From Octopus vulgaris (lineage: Eukaryota): 64,000 nt of DNA. The position numbers and the translations under genes are program-made. The stretch spans positions 17,794,001-17,858,000 of the forward strand of contig OX597843.1 of NCBI GenBank assembly GCA_951406725.2. Reading direction: 5' to 3'. Position 1 is the stretch's first letter, and the number at the start of each line of letters is the position of its first letter. Below the pieces are notes generated by a model, which did not search any database, had not been told where the DNA came from, and saw nothing but the letters and a program-made list of their open reading frames with translations. Positions 3,056 to 60,838 of this stretch are shown here, piece after piece.

Positions 3056-3114
3056 TACCGTATTGGTCCAATTTCGGGGTTAATTCACAAGAAATTTTCC
3101 CCTCTTCAGCGGCA
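3056..3114 (-). ncRNA. Type I hammerhead ribozyme, canonical core, in (TA)n-flanked insert 2841-3163
   Basis: tgccg CTGAAGA gggg-19nt-cccc GAAA ttgg-a-ccaa TA cggta: all three stems pair and the core is canonical. Confidence 0.85.
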
Positions 3115-3892
3115 CATACGCAAGATATAAATGAAGCAAGCACCAAGTCCCGAGCAGACTAAGTATATATATATATATATATATACATGTACATATACAC
3201 ACATATATACTATTTGTTTTCGTACTTCATGTTATTTACACAGCTTGTGACGTCCTGTACCCATATGCATTAATATATATATTTTAATGGAAAAAGCTAC
3301 TTATTAATTAGGTATCTAACAATTACTAAAAGAAAGCAATTATTAAAGGCTTGACTATCTGGAAATATTTTTTATAAATTCTTGTTCCAAGACATTACTT
3401 ATAGTTTCGATTTCTGAAGGGCAGTGAATATTTGAGCTACAAGTTTTCACAAATTTAAAAATTCGTTGCATTGTCTGTGGAGTGGATCTGATAAACAATA
3501 TTAATTGGTTACAGGCGAAATTTTCCGTTTTCATTTGCAACAGTCCTTCACTCTCTCTCTTGTCTCTATTTTCATTAATGATAATTTAATATATATTCAT
3601 TTCAATGTTTTCATTACAAGATTTAATTCACTATTTGCAAAACCCACAGTTTATTCTATATACCTAATGTAAAAAAATTATTTATTAAATGAATAAAATA
3701 GCTGCATAATTTTGAGGCTTATTTTTGATAAAATGGAAAATTTTTAATATACCGGTACAATTTTCTTTTAAATTAAGAAGTGATTTTGTTGGTATGGTTG
3801 TTTGGAACGCTATAAGTCTTACAATAATAACTATGTGATCGCTGCTATTTCTAGCACGCTAAACCTTGAAGTTTGTTTAAATTACAGATATA

Positions 3893-4291
3893 GTCTTTTC
3901 TACTCAAGGCACAAGGTCCGAAATTTTGGGAGAATGGGCCAGTCGATTAGATCGATCCCAGTACGCAACTGGTACTTAAATTTATCGATCTCGAAAGGAT
4001 GATAGGCAAAGTCAACCTCTGCGGAATTTGAACTCAGAACGTAATGACAGACGAAATACCTATTTCTTTATTACTCACAAGGGGCTAAACACAGAGGGGA
4101 CAAACAAGGACAGACATAGGTATTAAGTCGATTATATCGACCCCAGTGCGTAACTGGTACTTATTTAATCGACCCCGAAAGGATGAAAGGCAAAGTCGAC
4201 CTCGGCGGAATTTGAACTCAGAACGTAACGGCAGACGAAATACGGCTACGCATTTCGTCCGGCGTGCTAACGTCTCTGCCAGCTCGTCGCC
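3893..4291 (-). mobile_element. tRNA-derived SINE family 2 (Meta/MESC-like core), internally duplicated
   Basis: Core GCCTTTCATCCTTTCGGGGTCGAT-AAT-AGTACCAG twice, 184 bp apart; 16-bp TSD TTAAATTACAGATATA at 3877 and 4292. Confidence 0.85.
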
Positions 4292-4670
4292 TTAAATTAC
4301 AGATATATTACAACTATGATAAACTCCCGAAGGAAATATTTACTAAGCAAGTAAGATGTTTTTTTTATAAATTGAAGTTTTCAGGAGAATTTACTTTCTC
4401 AACTTGCTTTTATTATTAAATACACCAAGTTCACAAATTGAAATACTCAGTAGAAGATAGTTTTTAACGAGCTTTTCATTTCATATTTATTTCAGTCATT
4501 GCAATGTTCTCTCCCCCACCCCCGCCCTCTATCTCTTTGTCAGACACCCACGCACCAATATAATCACGCACACACTCCAGATTTGACTCGCAGAAAACTG
4601 CAGTATTTCTGTAGTGTGTGTGTGTGTGTGTGTGTGTGTGTGTGTGTGTGTGTGTGTGTGTGTGTATCAT

Positions 4671-5650
4671 AGGTGCAGGCGTGGCTGCATGGAAAGAATC
4701 TTACTTCCCAACTATGGTTCCGGGTTCAGTCCCTCTGCGTGGCACCTTGGGCAAGTGTCTTCTACTATAGCCTCAGCTGGACTAAAGCTTTGTGAGTAGA
4801 TTTGGTAGACGGAAACTGAAAGAAGCCTGTCGTTTATATATATATATTATATATATATATATATATATATATATATTATATATATATATATATATATATA
4901 TATATATATATATATATATATATATATATATATATATATATATATATATGTATGTATGTATATATATATATATATACTTATATATATGTATGTATGTATA
5001 TATAAATATATATATATATATATATATATGTATGTATATATATATATATCTTTGACCTCTGGCCGAAATCAGATCGCCATGTTGATTCGTTAGCTACTGC
5101 ACGCATTTTTTTCTCTCCTTCTTTCTGTGTTTTTCTCTCTCTGTGTATCTTTCTGTTGAAGAGCGTAGGCTCGAAACGTTAAAGACTTGTTTTATTTATA
5201 TTTCCTGAGCGCCATACTAATACAATTGTTCGTTTGTTTTCCACCTGCCTTCGTCTTTTGTTTATTTTCATAAAGCTTCCCGTTATATATATATATATAT
5301 AAATGACCGAAACTGGTACTGAAATGTTCTTTATAAAATTATTTTAGCATTTTCTATTTTGACTTGTTTTTTCATATATATATATATATATATATATATA
5401 TATATATATATATATATATATATATATATATATATACTTATATATATGTATGTATTTATATGTATGTGTGTCTGTGTTTGTCCCCCCGTCATCGCTTGAC
5501 GACCGGTGTTGATGTGTTTATGTTCCCGATAAGCTAAGTACTGGGCTTACAAAGAATGGCCTGCGTTGATTTCTTCGACTGATACCCTTTAAGGCGGTGC
5601 CCCAACATCACAGCAGTCAACTGACTGAAACAAGTTAAAGAATAAAAGAA
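4671..5650 (+). mobile_element. SINE family 1 split by an expanded (TA)n that carries an HHR insert
   Basis: 5' half 4671-4832, 3' half about 5465-5650; the intervening TA tract holds the 5055-5283 insert. Confidence 0.75.
5148..5185 (+). ncRNA. Minimal hammerhead-like motif, core variant CUGUUGA
   Basis: tcttt CTGTTGA a gagc-gtag-gctc GAAA cg TT aaaga; same family as 60210 and canonical 60801. Confidence 0.65.
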
Positions 5651-5680
5651 CATATATGTATACGTTGGGTGGGGCATTAT

Positions 5681-5868
5681 GCCGGTAATAATAAACACAC
5701 GCCCTGGTTCGGTCCTTTATTGGCTTTTGGTGCGAAATGCATTCTTGTTTATATCGCTAGCGGGAGATAAATCTCCAGCGCCGAGACCACCAGATCTCGG
5801 GATTTCGACATTCTCTGGTCTCGTTAATGATGGGCACTTGACGTTTAGAAGTAGCCACGTCTCATCTC
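5681..5868 (+). mobile_element. Short dispersed repeat, block-permuted relative to 9649-9851
   Basis: Shares both blocks with 9649-9851 (minus) in swapped order; contains GAAA-tgca-TT (possible HHR 3' half). Confidence 0.65.
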
Positions 5869-6754
5869 AGCGCCAGCGATATATAGAAAATCAGTACCAG
5901 AAGAAGCACTAGTACCACAACTTGCAAGTGAGCTTGTTTTTTAGATTTTCTAAAGAATTCAAAGCCGGTCCTCCAAGTAACGACGTTTAGTATACGAATA
6001 GGTAAATGCAAAACATGCGATTGAAGATAGAAAAAATGGGTAATGGATGTATCAGCATATTTCAAGAGTTATTGCTTCTTCGGTAATGGGGGAAATAGTA
6101 AGACGAAGACGTATTCGTATACGAAACGTCGTAATTTGCAGAGCTAGTTCTGAATTCTATAGAAAATCTATAGAAATAAACTTAAGAGTATTGCACTGCT
6201 AACACAAGGTAAAAATATTGCACTGCTAACACAAGGTAAGGCACAATATTGACTTGTAAATGGTTAATATACTTGCTAGTATATCATTTCCATGCTAGCA
6301 ATTAATAAAACTAGGATTGCTCCCCAACAACTGATCCTTCATTTTAGGGGCCAACGGATATTTCAGCCCCAACAATTGTTGATAATCTACAAAGACTAAT
6401 TTTATCAAAATCCACTGCGGACACCACGGGAGTGCAGAGGCAAAGAAAAATAGAACGGACCGGAGAGGGAGCAGAATTTGTTAAGACTGTCGCACTGTGC
6501 TCCGGACAATTCGTCACAGCTCGTTGGAGTGTCCAGTATATTAGAAGGGTGCAGAAAAAAAACTGGACAATGGAGAAAGAGGGAGAGAGATAGAGTGAGA
6601 CATAGACAAACAGGCACACAGACAGACAGACAGATATTGATTGCTTCGAGCCCCTCAAGACGTGGTTAGACTGCTGGATCAACCCTGGTTTGGGGCTACG
6701 CAACAACACCACCAACACAACCACCCCCGCTGACGTCTCAACAACTACCTCACG

Positions 6755-59060: not shown

Positions 59061-59523
59061 ATAGAATGGTTGTATACTGTCAATCTAACAAGAACGTGAC
59101 ACCACCGCTGTATAGCCCTAGGAAGCATCGAACGCCTCCTGATAGCTTTGACACATTTTTTCCTGTGTCCTTATATACATATACGAAGGGGAGACAAACA
59201 CCCCGGCCGCCGGAACTGCATCTAGGGACACCGTGTTTCAGGATCATTGTCCTTCATCGGCCTAGAGTAGCAGACACCGGTCGGCTGGTGATATTTGCCT
59301 CGACTTCGTATCTGTATATATGTAAACTCAGTGAAGTTTATTCACTGATGCAGTTCCGGCGGCCGGGGGTGTTTGTCTCCCCTTCGTATATGTATATAAG
59401 GACACAGGAAAAAAATGTGTCAAAGCCCATCAGGAGGCGTTCGATGCTTCCTAGGGCTATACAGCGGTGGTGTACCCCCTACTGTCACATTCTTGTTAGA
59501 TTGACAGTATACAACCATTCTAT
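59061..59523. mobile_element. Fold-back element, 160-175-bp arms, HHR in spacer
   Basis: 59061-59222 reverse-complementary to 59347-59523. Confidence 0.85.
59221..59266 (-). ncRNA. Type I hammerhead ribozyme, U4C core variant
   Basis: tctagg CCGATGA agga-caatga-tcct GAAA cac-g-gtg TC cctaga; all stems perfect. Confidence 0.8.
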
Positions 59524-59678
59524 ATATATATAAATATATATATTTATGTATATATATATATGTATATGTATATATAAATATACTATGTATATATATACAT
59601 ATATATATATGTATATATATGTATATAGATATATATATGTATGTATATATATATGTGAAGGCGCATGGCTATATATGT

Positions 59679-60019
59679 GAAGGCGCATGGCTCAGTGGTT
59701 AGAGCGTCGAGCTTACGATCGTGAGGTTGTGAGCTCGAATCCCGGACCGGGCTGCGTGTTGTGTTCTTGAGCAAGGCACTTTATTTCACGTTGCTCCAGT
59801 TCACTCAGCTGTAGAAATGAGTTGCATCGTCACTGGTGCCAAGCTGTATCGACCTTTGTCTTTCCCTTGGATAACACTGGTGGCGTGGAGATGGGAGGCT
59901 GGTATGCATGGGCGACTGCTGGCCTTCCATAAACAACCTTGCCCGGACTTGTGTCTAGGAGGGTAACTTTCTAGGTGCAATCCCATAGTCATTCATGACC
60001 GAAGGGGGTCTTTACCCTT
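59679..60019 (+). mobile_element. tRNA-derived CORE-like SINE (family 3), full length
   Basis: TGGCTCAGTGG A box, GCTCGAATCC B box, CTTGAGCAAGGCACTT core, CTTTACCCTTT tail. Confidence 0.85.
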
Positions 60020-60209
60020 TATATAAATATATATATATATATGTGTGTGTATATATATATATATATATATATATGCATAGATACATGCACATATTCATAC
60101 TTATATATATATATATATATATATATATATATATATATATATACATGTTGATTCGTTAGTTACTGCACGCATTTTTTTCTCTCCTTTCTGTGTTTTTTTT
60201 CTCTGTGTA

Positions 60210-60247
60210 TCTTTCTGTTGAAGAGCGTAGGCTCGAAACGTTAAAGA
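60210..60247 (+). ncRNA. Minimal hammerhead-like motif, core variant CUGUUGA
   Basis: Identical to 5148-5185. Confidence 0.65.
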
Positions 60248-60800
60248 CTTGTTTTATTTATATTTCCTGAGCGCCACTACTAATACAATTGTTTGTTTGT
60301 TTTCCACCTGCCTTCGTCTTTTGTCTATTTTCATAAAGCTTCCCGTTATATATATATATATATATATATATATATATATATATATATATATATATATATA
60401 TATATATATATATATATGTATATATATATATATACATGTATATATATATATATATATATATATATATATATATATATATATATATATATATATATATACA
60501 TATATATATATATATATATATAGATACATGCACATATTATACTTATATATATATATACATTTATATATATATATATATATAGATATACATGTATATATAT
60601 ATATATATATATATATATACATGTATATATATATATGTATATATATATACATGTATATATATATATATATATATATATATATATATATATATATGTATAT
60701 ATGTATATATATATATATATATATATATATATATATACATGTATATGTATATCGTTCGTTCCTACACGCATTTTTTTCTCTCCTTGTTTTTTTCTATGTA

Positions 60801-60838
60801 TCTTTCTGACGAGGAGCGTAAGCTCGAAACGTAAAAGA
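60801..60838 (+). ncRNA. Minimal type I hammerhead ribozyme, canonical core
   Basis: tcttt CTGACGA g gagc-gtaa-gctc GAAA cg TA aaaga. Confidence 0.8.

Follow-up and report, generated by a model that had tools for sequence, protein, structure and literature searches.

Hammerhead motifs of PLEs and non-coding retrozymes in a 64-kb octopus window, with a predicted split-core fold in one repeat family

The hammerhead motifs of the 64-kb window, the whole stretch of Octopus vulgaris DNA analysed here, are very probably terminal-repeat ribozyme motifs of Penelope-like elements (PLEs), as traced for three families, together with non-coding tandem retrozymes likely using PLE enzymes; all were likely inserted into (TA)n. 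One further family, N, is likely a counterpart from the Naiad clade with a predicted closed-knot fold. Ribozyme-bearing PLEs with likely non-coding passengers are a known kind of element: with the 22 motifs of a preliminary description of this DNA, PLE hammerheads and retrozymes are recorded, and densely so, in a genome of the octopus type as well, a useful and expected result. Family N, the most unusual element of the span, was absent from that description. A 2026 repeat annotation of Octopus vulgaris (PMC13282606) leaves ribozymes out of its main text.

Hammerhead motifs in the window and in the genome

Rfam hammerhead models gave zero matches at the gathering threshold; at E ≤ 1 no hammerhead was among the 150 of 311 results listed, and two sub-regions at E ≤ 10 gave none either. 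Structure scans were therefore written instead. The strict type I scan required at least 4 for stem I, 3 for stem II and 2 for stem III; its cores (C3-G8, U3-A8, G3-C8, A3-U8, C4 and U6) were picked after inspection of the data. The scanner had been relaxed to include sites whose stem II starts with a mismatched pair, which an earlier version missed. The scan found 15 matches in the window, every one among the 22 listed sites, as against 0.42 ± 0.65 (maximum 3) in 100 block-wise dinucleotide shuffles of the window. With canonical cores only, 8 matches were found, versus 0.03-0.05 in shuffles. That the motifs are chance matches in AT-rich, microsatellite-rich DNA is hardly credible: the relaxed scan does produce false matches, about 5 per 600 kb, but the excess in the window and the retention of core and stems in families of thousands of copies speak against it.

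All 22 positions fall on a hammerhead-like motif, although the coordinates given as core starts in fact mark the edge of stem I. Minimal type I hammerheads of the PLE kind (CUGANGA, GAAA and UH, with stems I to III in order) are present at 15 sites; at the remaining 7, a helix or the core is weak or broken. Of the 13 sites called canonical, 8 pass the scan. The exceptions are 21736, where a single pair of stem I is mismatched; 26551, whose stem II is weak; 32553, in which both stem I and stem III are damaged; and 54577 and 58063, each with just 3 of 5 stem I pairs. Seven of the nine variant sites pass, 49718 failing through a G3.A8 mismatch and 50925 through loss of G12.

The motifs sort into 13 repeat families, or 12 with B and M merged, in agreement with the earlier estimate of about 12, and these are dispersed across the 2.8-Gb octopus-type genome. 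Type I stems are unrelated in sequence between families while the core is conserved; the 3-8 pair occurs as C-G, U-A, G-C and A-U. Some of these core variants might be covered by Lunse et al. 2017. Double changes could be read off between the C copies (stem I), between G and the L091 locus (stems I and III) and between B and M (stem I).

Hammerhead density in the window is about five times that of a 600-kb genome sample, whose net density of 1 per 23 kb extrapolates to roughly 10^5 genome-wide. A (TA)6+ run lies within 250 bp of the core at 15 of 22 sites, compared with 44% of random positions; over 60 sample regions, the TA-run count did not predict the hammerhead count (rho -0.06).

Families J, D and B as 3' ends of PLEs

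We traced seven of the listed families in the genome (J, D, B, A, C, G and I); no ORF was linked to E, F, H, K, L or M. Judged from their genomic relatives, J, D and B are what 5' truncation has left of the 3' ends of PLEs, Neptune-like or Hydra-like, that code for RT and GIY-YIG. Since a tblastn search of the window with PLE proteins found no ORF adjoining any listed site, the link runs through these relatives only.

Family J occupies 21373..21872 (+), the 5'-truncated 3' end of an RT + GIY-YIG PLE with Hydra-like motifs, and its hammerhead (21741-21822, +) has a single stem I mismatch; in the genome, RT and GIY-YIG coding lies about 320 bp upstream, and no TA gap intervenes. Family D forms a palindrome (54204..58374) of two 5'-truncated PLE copies, 4 kb and 99.7% identical, whose hammerheads at 54580-54693 (-) and 58066-58179 (+) have a weak stem I. 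Its full unit measures 5.6 kb with a hammerhead at each end, and the top 40 genome matches are 100% identical. In each of the two full copies retrieved, RT and endonuclease occupy different frames; a Pfam search of these frames gave no match, so their RT/GIY-YIG assignment rests on motifs. Family B is present at 5148..5185 (+, U6 core), at the 3' end of a Neptune-like PLE, at 60210..60247 (+, U6 core, from the structure scan) and at 60801..60838 (+), an A6 copy that is an exception within the family. RT/GIY-YIG coding was found about 0.7-0.9 kb upstream of B in three loci (L274, L275 and L269).

Genome-wide, GIY-YIG gave 148 scored matches, several of them in 781-aa open frames with RVT_1 and GIY-YIG, the 3' UTRs of which terminate in type I hammerheads. 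On visual inspection, none of six additional GIY-YIG loci resembled a Naiad with its N-terminal endonuclease. J, D and B thus have RT followed by a GIY-YIG endonuclease upstream of the hammerhead, as in EN+ PLEs (D by motifs), and they share the 5' truncation, pLTR tandem and inverted 5' copy of PLE architecture.

The B-linked and 781-aa ORFs carry the CX2-5CxxC linker and CCHH endonuclease of the Neptune PLEs described by Craig et al. 2021 (PMC8557442). Like the Hydra PLEs of the same work, D has RWR (RWK-like), DKT, CxCX5C and CxxC/CxH, and J has CxxC/CxH, both without CCHH. Targeting of (TA)n is common to all of these, the octopus clades being assigned by motifs alone. Unlike the Neptune and Hydra PLEs described there, D has its ORF split over two frames.

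Family B was counted by pattern search; a DNA search came back empty because its words are too common. Exact copies carrying U6 number at least 16,228, with all four bases represented at N7, and in a random sample U6 was present in 8 of about 10 genuine copies and A6 in none. A family that has reached over 16,000 copies with a U in position 6 of the core offers a natural experiment on whether cleavage is required by PLEs at all. It is possible, though unlikely, that the folds are kept as structural signals for a PLE protein (template recognition, priming or termination), with self-cleavage weak or incidental. The spread of B fits this idea, as do the reduced activity that follows A6 changes (A6C <0.1 per min, PMC3088659), the youth of D despite its weak stem I and the roles besides cleavage admitted in PMC4209133. 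Against it stand two signatures of hammerhead chemistry: the swaps of the 3-8 pair between families and, in family N, a position 17 that is never G beside a variable N7.

Non-coding tandem families at TA microsatellites

Families A, C, G and I consist of non-coding units of 365-560 bp in tandem, each with a type I hammerhead. The family A insertion (19666..21344) combines an inverted copy with a direct tandem of a 560-bp non-coding unit and contains hammerheads at 19948-20002 (-), 20542-20596 (+) and 21102-21156 (+). The genome holds 1705 candidates of this family, with tandem arrays of at least 15 units, and the circular monomer folds about 4.5 SD below 15 shuffles. Family G (3056..3114, -; C3 at 3109) sits in a 322-bp TA-flanked insert and has a non-coding tandem unit of about 462 bp; the genome has 2182 candidates, and in 15 of 20 loci no more than 30 bp separate the 3' end from TA. 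The 3' end is likewise fixed at TA in 17 of 20 loci of family I and 14 of 25 of family C. Family I is an insert at 59008..59520 (-), with a non-coding unit of about 365 bp, an inverted 5' arm and a C4-core hammerhead (59222-59265, -). Family C is represented at 26552..26608 (+), with a weak stem II and a non-coding tandem unit of about 0.5 kb, and by a variant at 36602..36658 (-) in which, compared with the copy at 26552, a stem I pair is changed on both sides.

Tandem arrays and inverted 5' copies were seen among the traced families. Together with 3' ends fixed at (TA)n, these are PLE hallmarks, and the earlier proposal of ribozyme-bearing retroelements that target TA microsatellites holds. 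The tandem and inverted 5' copies match the PLE architecture described in PMC8557442. Tracing of genome copies found no autonomous partner for A, C, G, I or N. Families A and N are also represented in contigs from public runs presumed to be RNA; these contigs reveal neither ends nor strand nor circles and speak neither for nor against transcription.

The remaining sites are single motifs, pairs or decayed copies. Family E (18790..18830, +) has a U3-A8 core and a copy at 50921..50962 (-) that lost G12; family F (32001..32047, -) has a G3-C8 core and a copy with the G3.A8 mismatch at 49720..49766 (-). Families L (25172..25246, +; long stem II) and M (25551..25587, +; about 73% like B) have C4 cores. 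Family K (32550..32656, +) is decayed, with 2 of 5 stem I pairs and a broken stem III. The family H pair, head-to-head at 27533-27581 (-) and 27602-27650 (+), stands alone among the listed sites in that its stem III is a true hairpin.

Non-coding tandem units with a single type I hammerhead each, and PLEs alongside, are also described for the non-LTR retrozymes of animals (Cervera and de la Pena 2020, PMC7229834; bioRxiv 10.64898/2026.07.22.740005). By comparison, the octopus units of 365-560 bp (about 800 bp for N) in part exceed the usual 150-450 bp, and the octopus families, known here from DNA alone, have clear TA targeting and inverted 5' arms.

The preliminary description had assigned all motifs to one large non-autonomous system, a view borne out only in part. 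A single self-contained system of this kind, with every family retrozyme-like and each transcript cut repeatedly, is very improbable. A, C, G, I and N, as non-coding tandem repeats, would suit it, and so would the stable fold of the circular A monomer; J, D and B, however, are tails of ORF-bearing PLEs, and the 7 weak or broken and 18 dimer-type sites also speak against it.

Cleavage and proposed mechanism

Stem III is palindromic at 18 of 22 sites, the dimer-dependent type, which makes it unlikely that a transcript crossing the region would meet many self-cleavage sites, as had been suggested. The sites are also split between strands (13 + and 9 -), 7 are weak or broken, and the commonest traced family, B, carries a fixed A6-to-U change in the core. 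In published tests, minimal hammerheads of the PLE type had low or no cleavage (PMC4209133), and one of nine retrozyme dimers was cleaved (Li, Clavereau and Pollet 2026, bioRxiv 10.64898/2026.07.22.740005).

In the mechanism that we favour, the endonuclease would likely nick (TA)n and target-primed reverse transcription would then insert the element. From the PLE literature, copying would begin at the 3' end of the RNA and mostly stop early, so that a 3'-terminal hammerhead would be the usual remnant of an insertion. Where a tandem source is active, pairing of two hammerheads by way of the palindromic stem III would excise unit-length RNA, possibly circularised, from which more-than-unit cDNA could arise; a lone copy would in most cases remain uncut.

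The PLE pseudo-LTR hammerheads of Cervera and de la Pena 2014 (PMC4209133) are alike in their type I order, palindromic stem III, U3-A8 variant and extra unpaired base after A9, and mostly occur as single copies from truncated PLEs, with many divergent families per genome. To the variants described there, the octopus set adds G3-C8, A3-U8 and C4, as well as a U6 core common to a whole family. The octopus estimate of about 10^5 exceeds the 2,000-9,000 per genome given in that work, the descriptors being different.

Family N and a predicted split-core hammerhead

The family N insert (11343..12383, +) is TA-flanked and non-coding, with an 804-bp tandem unit; the family has 4,078 genome matches, versus 0 in the control. 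Copy 1 (11391..11446, +) retains intact S, G and C blocks and lacks the upstream stem II strand because it is 5'-truncated. Copy 2 (12143..12250, +) is the predicted split-core hammerhead: hairpin V (12143-12174) is followed by stem II strand P (12175-12179), an extra helix pairs 12181-12187 with 12231-12237, and the blocks are S (12195-12207), G (12210-12222) and C (12236-12250), with a predicted cut after 12200. A stem I mismatch lies at 12242, where public contigs carry a different majority base.

Covariation supports these helices: 12 of 21 pairs changed on both sides and 94% were paired, in related, hand-chosen sequences whose counts are thus not independent events. Out of sample, 301 of 330 pairs formed, compared with 263 ± 5 in the control, when linkers of 1-3 nt were allowed for sample and control alike, after exclusion of 10 of 43 copies whose truncation runs into TA; with fewer linker offsets, the figures were 233 of 430 and 270 of 330. 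In 30 well-paired copies, position 17 is never G and N7 varies.

The S-G-C order, with covarying stems I and III, all core bases kept and 1-3 nt linking stem I to stem II, is that of the type-SGC non-circularly permuted hammerhead (Eckert et al. 2023, PMC10085705). In that type, stem II comes from the strand after CUGANGA; in N, the helix with this strand has no double change, and an upstream strand, P, covaries with the 3' strand instead. For these reasons, N likely works like SGC yet is no SGC member, as its pairing patterns suggest. Because stem II would be made by a fourth, upstream strand, block C would be broken between A9 and G10.1, a break that PMC10085705 assumed cannot occur. According to the same source, type-SGC comes from metatranscriptomes only and from no genomes of known organisms; N, in contrast, is a genomic animal repeat.

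We consider it doubtful that N is a plain type-SGC, with stem II from the downstream strand, or no hammerhead at all. A 4-bp downstream helix with two G-U pairs is possible in 95% of cells, and the minimum-energy fold of copy 2 has stem III without stem I or P:II, in a program that cannot form pseudoknots. Nevertheless, that helix lacks double changes, and a change in the 3' strand of stem II (the L443 locus; four family members among 11 matches) is accompanied by one in P and by none in the downstream strand. The corresponding upstream helix of octopus Naiad also forms 93 of 96 possible pairs. An assignment of N to type II and one to plain SGC were both dropped.

The octopus Naiad 3' UTR has the same helices as N with a different sequence, and N would adopt the same fold, in the order P-S-G-C and opened at A9/G10.1. 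Naiad_Ovul (Craig et al. 2021) shares with N its (TA)n targeting and, in the 3' UTR, the four helices and block order; N differs in being non-coding and has no significant blastn similarity to the Naiad copies fetched beyond microsatellite-like stretches. These likenesses make N a likely Naiad-clade counterpart, a non-coding tandem repeat with a predicted closed-knot hammerhead fold. PLE coding lies upstream in 1 of 93 family N copies, at a junction not common to the others; an N copy next to Neptune coding (L358) was set aside as a nested insertion.

The balance tips modestly towards a wider proposal, namely that N and octopus Naiad carry an active hammerhead of undescribed topology (four strands, non-circular, core opened at A9/G10.1 and kept together by an additional helix and a hairpin at its flank) that would be the missing Naiad ribozyme; N would then be a Naiad-driven retrozyme in thousands of copies, in a genome of about 10^5 hammerheads including one family spread with a U6 core. 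A literature search found no description of the block order and split core of N, and passages of PMC10162972 and PMC13725137 contain nothing on such a topology. Naiads are without canonical hammerheads according to Craig et al. 2021, whose supplement annotates Naiad_Ovul as 'HHR_half_core'. The split-core fold, if true, would account for such half-core annotations, and family N suggests that the core can open at A9/G10.1, contrary to the block rule of Eckert et al. Split-core ribozymes would escape standard descriptors and Rfam. N-like contigs occur in public runs coded as organisms A-D.

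Hammerhead motifs in the window

With a canonical-core type I descriptor, 8 sites were found in the window (G000:C30:17794001-17858000; genome, 2.8 Gb), versus 0.03-0.05 in shuffles, both global and block. When the cores U3-A8, G3-C8, A3-U8, C4 and U6 were added, a set picked only after the data were seen, the resulting unified descriptor gave 15 matches versus 0.42 (max 3) per shuffle over 100 shuffles, a density that shuffled sequence does not match. All 15 fall among the 22 hammerheads listed in a preliminary description; the remaining seven, checked by eye, are family members with one weak or broken element. 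That description is partly confirmed: the families are real and the positions lie on hammerhead-like motifs, but the coordinates mark edges of stem I rather than core starts.

The 22 motifs belong to known kinds, namely hammerheads of Penelope-like retroelements (PLEs) and animal retrozymes; our literature search on hammerheads in octopus, cephalopods or Penelope found no octopus study. Nine sites lie on the minus strand. An exactly palindromic stem III occurs at 14 sites, and at four more the palindrome has a single central base; among the listed sites only the family H pair has a true hairpin stem III. Rfam returned no hammerhead for the window at the gathering threshold or among the matches listed at E<=1, nor for two window sub-regions at E<=10.

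Two further hammerhead relatives, both with a decayed core, form an inverted pair at 24905-24990; intact C4-core copies are present in two other genomic stretches (L025 and L067). Near-perfect hairpins of inverted repeat arms at 18466-18614 and 18757-18921, one centred on a TA run, draw spurious Rfam miRNA matches.

A predicted split-core hammerhead in family N

Within the span and system of the listed hammerheads lies family N, an element with a predicted split core, which the preliminary description missed and for which hammerhead cleavage is predicted. Two copies of its 804-bp unit stand between TA runs at 11343-12383. The units carry UH, GAAA and CUGANGA in the block order S-G-C (S holding the predicted cut), which no circular permutation yields. 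Stems I and III covary: in two alignments both partners differ in 5 and 6 pairs, with far lower values in slid controls. A pattern confined to the G and C blocks matches 4,078 times (control, 0). For an out-of-sample test, 40 further matching places were picked for variety and scored on the upstream block, which the pattern leaves unconstrained. Of 330 pairs in 33 copies, 301 form, versus 263 +/- 5 (max 284) with shuffled partners; 10 copies truncated into TA were omitted. None of the 30 well-paired copies has G at position 17, which is always C, A or U.

Type-SGC ribozymes, which the accessible text of PMC10085705 places in metatranscriptomes only and in no genome of a known organism, follow a block scheme in which CUGANGA is assumed to remain joined to stem II (same text). 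We rejected this type for stem II of family N, as no pair of the downstream helix is changed on both sides. Here, in contrast, stem II is predicted to use an upstream strand: 5 bases ~40 nt upstream are fully complementary to its 3' strand in 43 of 59 distinct copies, and in a subfamily with an altered 3' strand the upstream strand is altered too, while the strand after A9 is not. With stem II formed in this way, the core is predicted to be open at A9/G10.1. In the four-helix model 94% of cells are paired and 12 of 21 pairs are changed on both sides, stem II contributing only one of the 12; a hairpin directly 5' of the upstream strand covaries at one pair. Both window copies are imperfect, copy 1 lacking the upstream strand and copy 2 having one stem I mismatch. 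We found no later description of non-circular, type-SGC, retrotransposon-permuted or Naiad hammerheads in a search largely confined to non-subscription papers.

In certain subfamilies but not others, 12155-12175, just 5' of the stem II strand, is similar to a spliceosomal 3' splice site; a PLE intron end has been mapped adjoining a hammerhead (PMC4209133, accessible text). Two conserved stretches rich in GA (12188-12194 and 12223-12230), which separate stem III from the extra helix, look kink-turn-like.

Relation to Naiad

In the accessible text of Craig et al. (PMC8557442), Naiad_Ovul, of the PLE clade Naiad, is listed as (TA)n-targeted and annotated 'HHR_half_core'. Its 3' end has the family N block order, as does the record printed before it. 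A 25-base Naiad_Ovul motif has 494 matches in the genome with one mismatch allowed (control, 0), a result that also marks the genome as octopus-type, and Naiad reverse transcriptase (RT) is still upstream at 1 of 20 motif loci. At the 16 of 20 with a C block, 93/96 pairs form in stem II, 78/80 in stem III, 93/96 in stem I and 72/80 in the extra helix, counts in which part of the scored strands had already been fixed by the query motif. Naiad and family N have these helices in common but with largely different sequences. Since no significant sequence is shared beyond the fold, descent of family N from Naiad is something we only infer.

Coding elements with hammerheads

At least 148 matches to GIY-YIG, the PLE endonuclease, were scored among 6,136 candidates in the genome; many sit in frames of 781 aa that contain RVT_1 together with GIY-YIG, and active-looking PLEs are present. 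The 3' UTRs of these PLEs close with a type I hammerhead directly before TA, its core being U3-A8, C4, C3-G8 or A3-U8. The earlier interpretation is partly supported: ribozyme-bearing retroelements at TA hold, a purely non-autonomous system does not, as families J, D and B are linked to ORFs.

Longer copies of family J (21373-21872) extend into an RT and GIY-YIG domain, with a Hydra-type endonuclease end. The 4-kb palindrome of family D (54204-58374) corresponds to the 3' end of a 5.6-kb unit that has a hammerhead at each end; the best 40 matches to this unit are 100% identical. Motifs described for the Hydra clade (PMC8557442, accessible text) are also found in family D. Family B extends into a Neptune-type endonuclease, and its U6-core pattern has 16,228 exact matches in the genome (control, 0).

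In both full copies of the young 5.6-kb element of family D (L348:1038-3915, L347), two separate frames encode the RT (472 aa) and the endonuclease (444 aa); an intron, recoding or a shared defect are candidate causes. In another genomic stretch, L051:406-4087, a 781-aa Neptune-type ORF lies downstream of a second frame, 359 aa long and without a Pfam match. An AT-rich, TA-flanked repeat with inverted relatives (23932-24500 and 27150-27300) is probably another PLE remnant; within it, 24099-24284 is weakly matched by the protein of family J in tblastn.

Non-coding families and other repeats

Families A (560 bp), G (~462), I (~365) and C (~500) are non-coding tandem repeats, with arrays of 15 or more units in A. 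Their 5' sides vary and an inverted copy is frequent; the 3' end is fixed beside TA at 15/20 loci in G, 17/20 in I and 14/25 in C. No ORF link was traced for families E, F, H, K, L and M. The window also holds a zf-RVT remnant at 33 kb (32960-33676), an endonuclease-RT element at 51-54 kb (51292-53943) and, as judged by eye, frames of LINE type at 38-46 kb (38000-46200) and, near 23 kb (22700-23560), the remnant of a mariner-like transposase.

Insertion and cleavage

Folds, families, end structure and, for three families, upstream ORFs were observed directly. PLE GIY-YIG endonuclease nicks the target, a linker zinc-finger motif being proposed to favour (TA)n, and RT starts copying at the 3' end of the RNA, frequently halting early (accessible texts of PMC8557442 and PMC4209133). 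After an early stop, most insertions would retain the tail with the hammerhead, the likely reason for many unrelated short inserts with one hammerhead each. In tandem source copies, two hammerheads may pair via stem III and release unit-length RNA, perhaps then circularised; lone copies would be mostly silent. Cleavage of transcripts at many sites, as first envisaged, is unlikely given this expected silence and published motifs that cleave poorly: no cleavage of a single minimal PLE hammerhead is reported in the accessible text of PMC4209133, 1 of 9 frog retrozyme hammerhead dimers cleaved (bioRxiv 2026.07.22.740005, accessible text) and an A6 change reduces the rate (PMC3088659).

Density across the genome

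Sixty hand-spaced 10-kb stretches on 30 contigs gave 31 unified-descriptor matches versus 5.2 in shuffles, 7 of the 31 coming from one array. The net density is 1 per 23 kb; that of the window is about fivefold higher. Rough extrapolation from this sample gives ~10^5 hammerheads in the genome; published counts are >6,000 in coral, ~5,000 in mussel and up to 120,000 in axolotl (PMC7229834, accessible text). Runs of (TA)8+ number 16.1 per 10 kb in the window versus 6.4 in the sample, and over the 60 stretches match count and TA-run count did not correlate in what is a weak test (rho -0.06). Another genomic stretch (L071:2300-4520) holds a further retrozyme family, in which seven canonical type I hammerheads, five direct and two inverted, form an array with a spacing of 353-359 bp.
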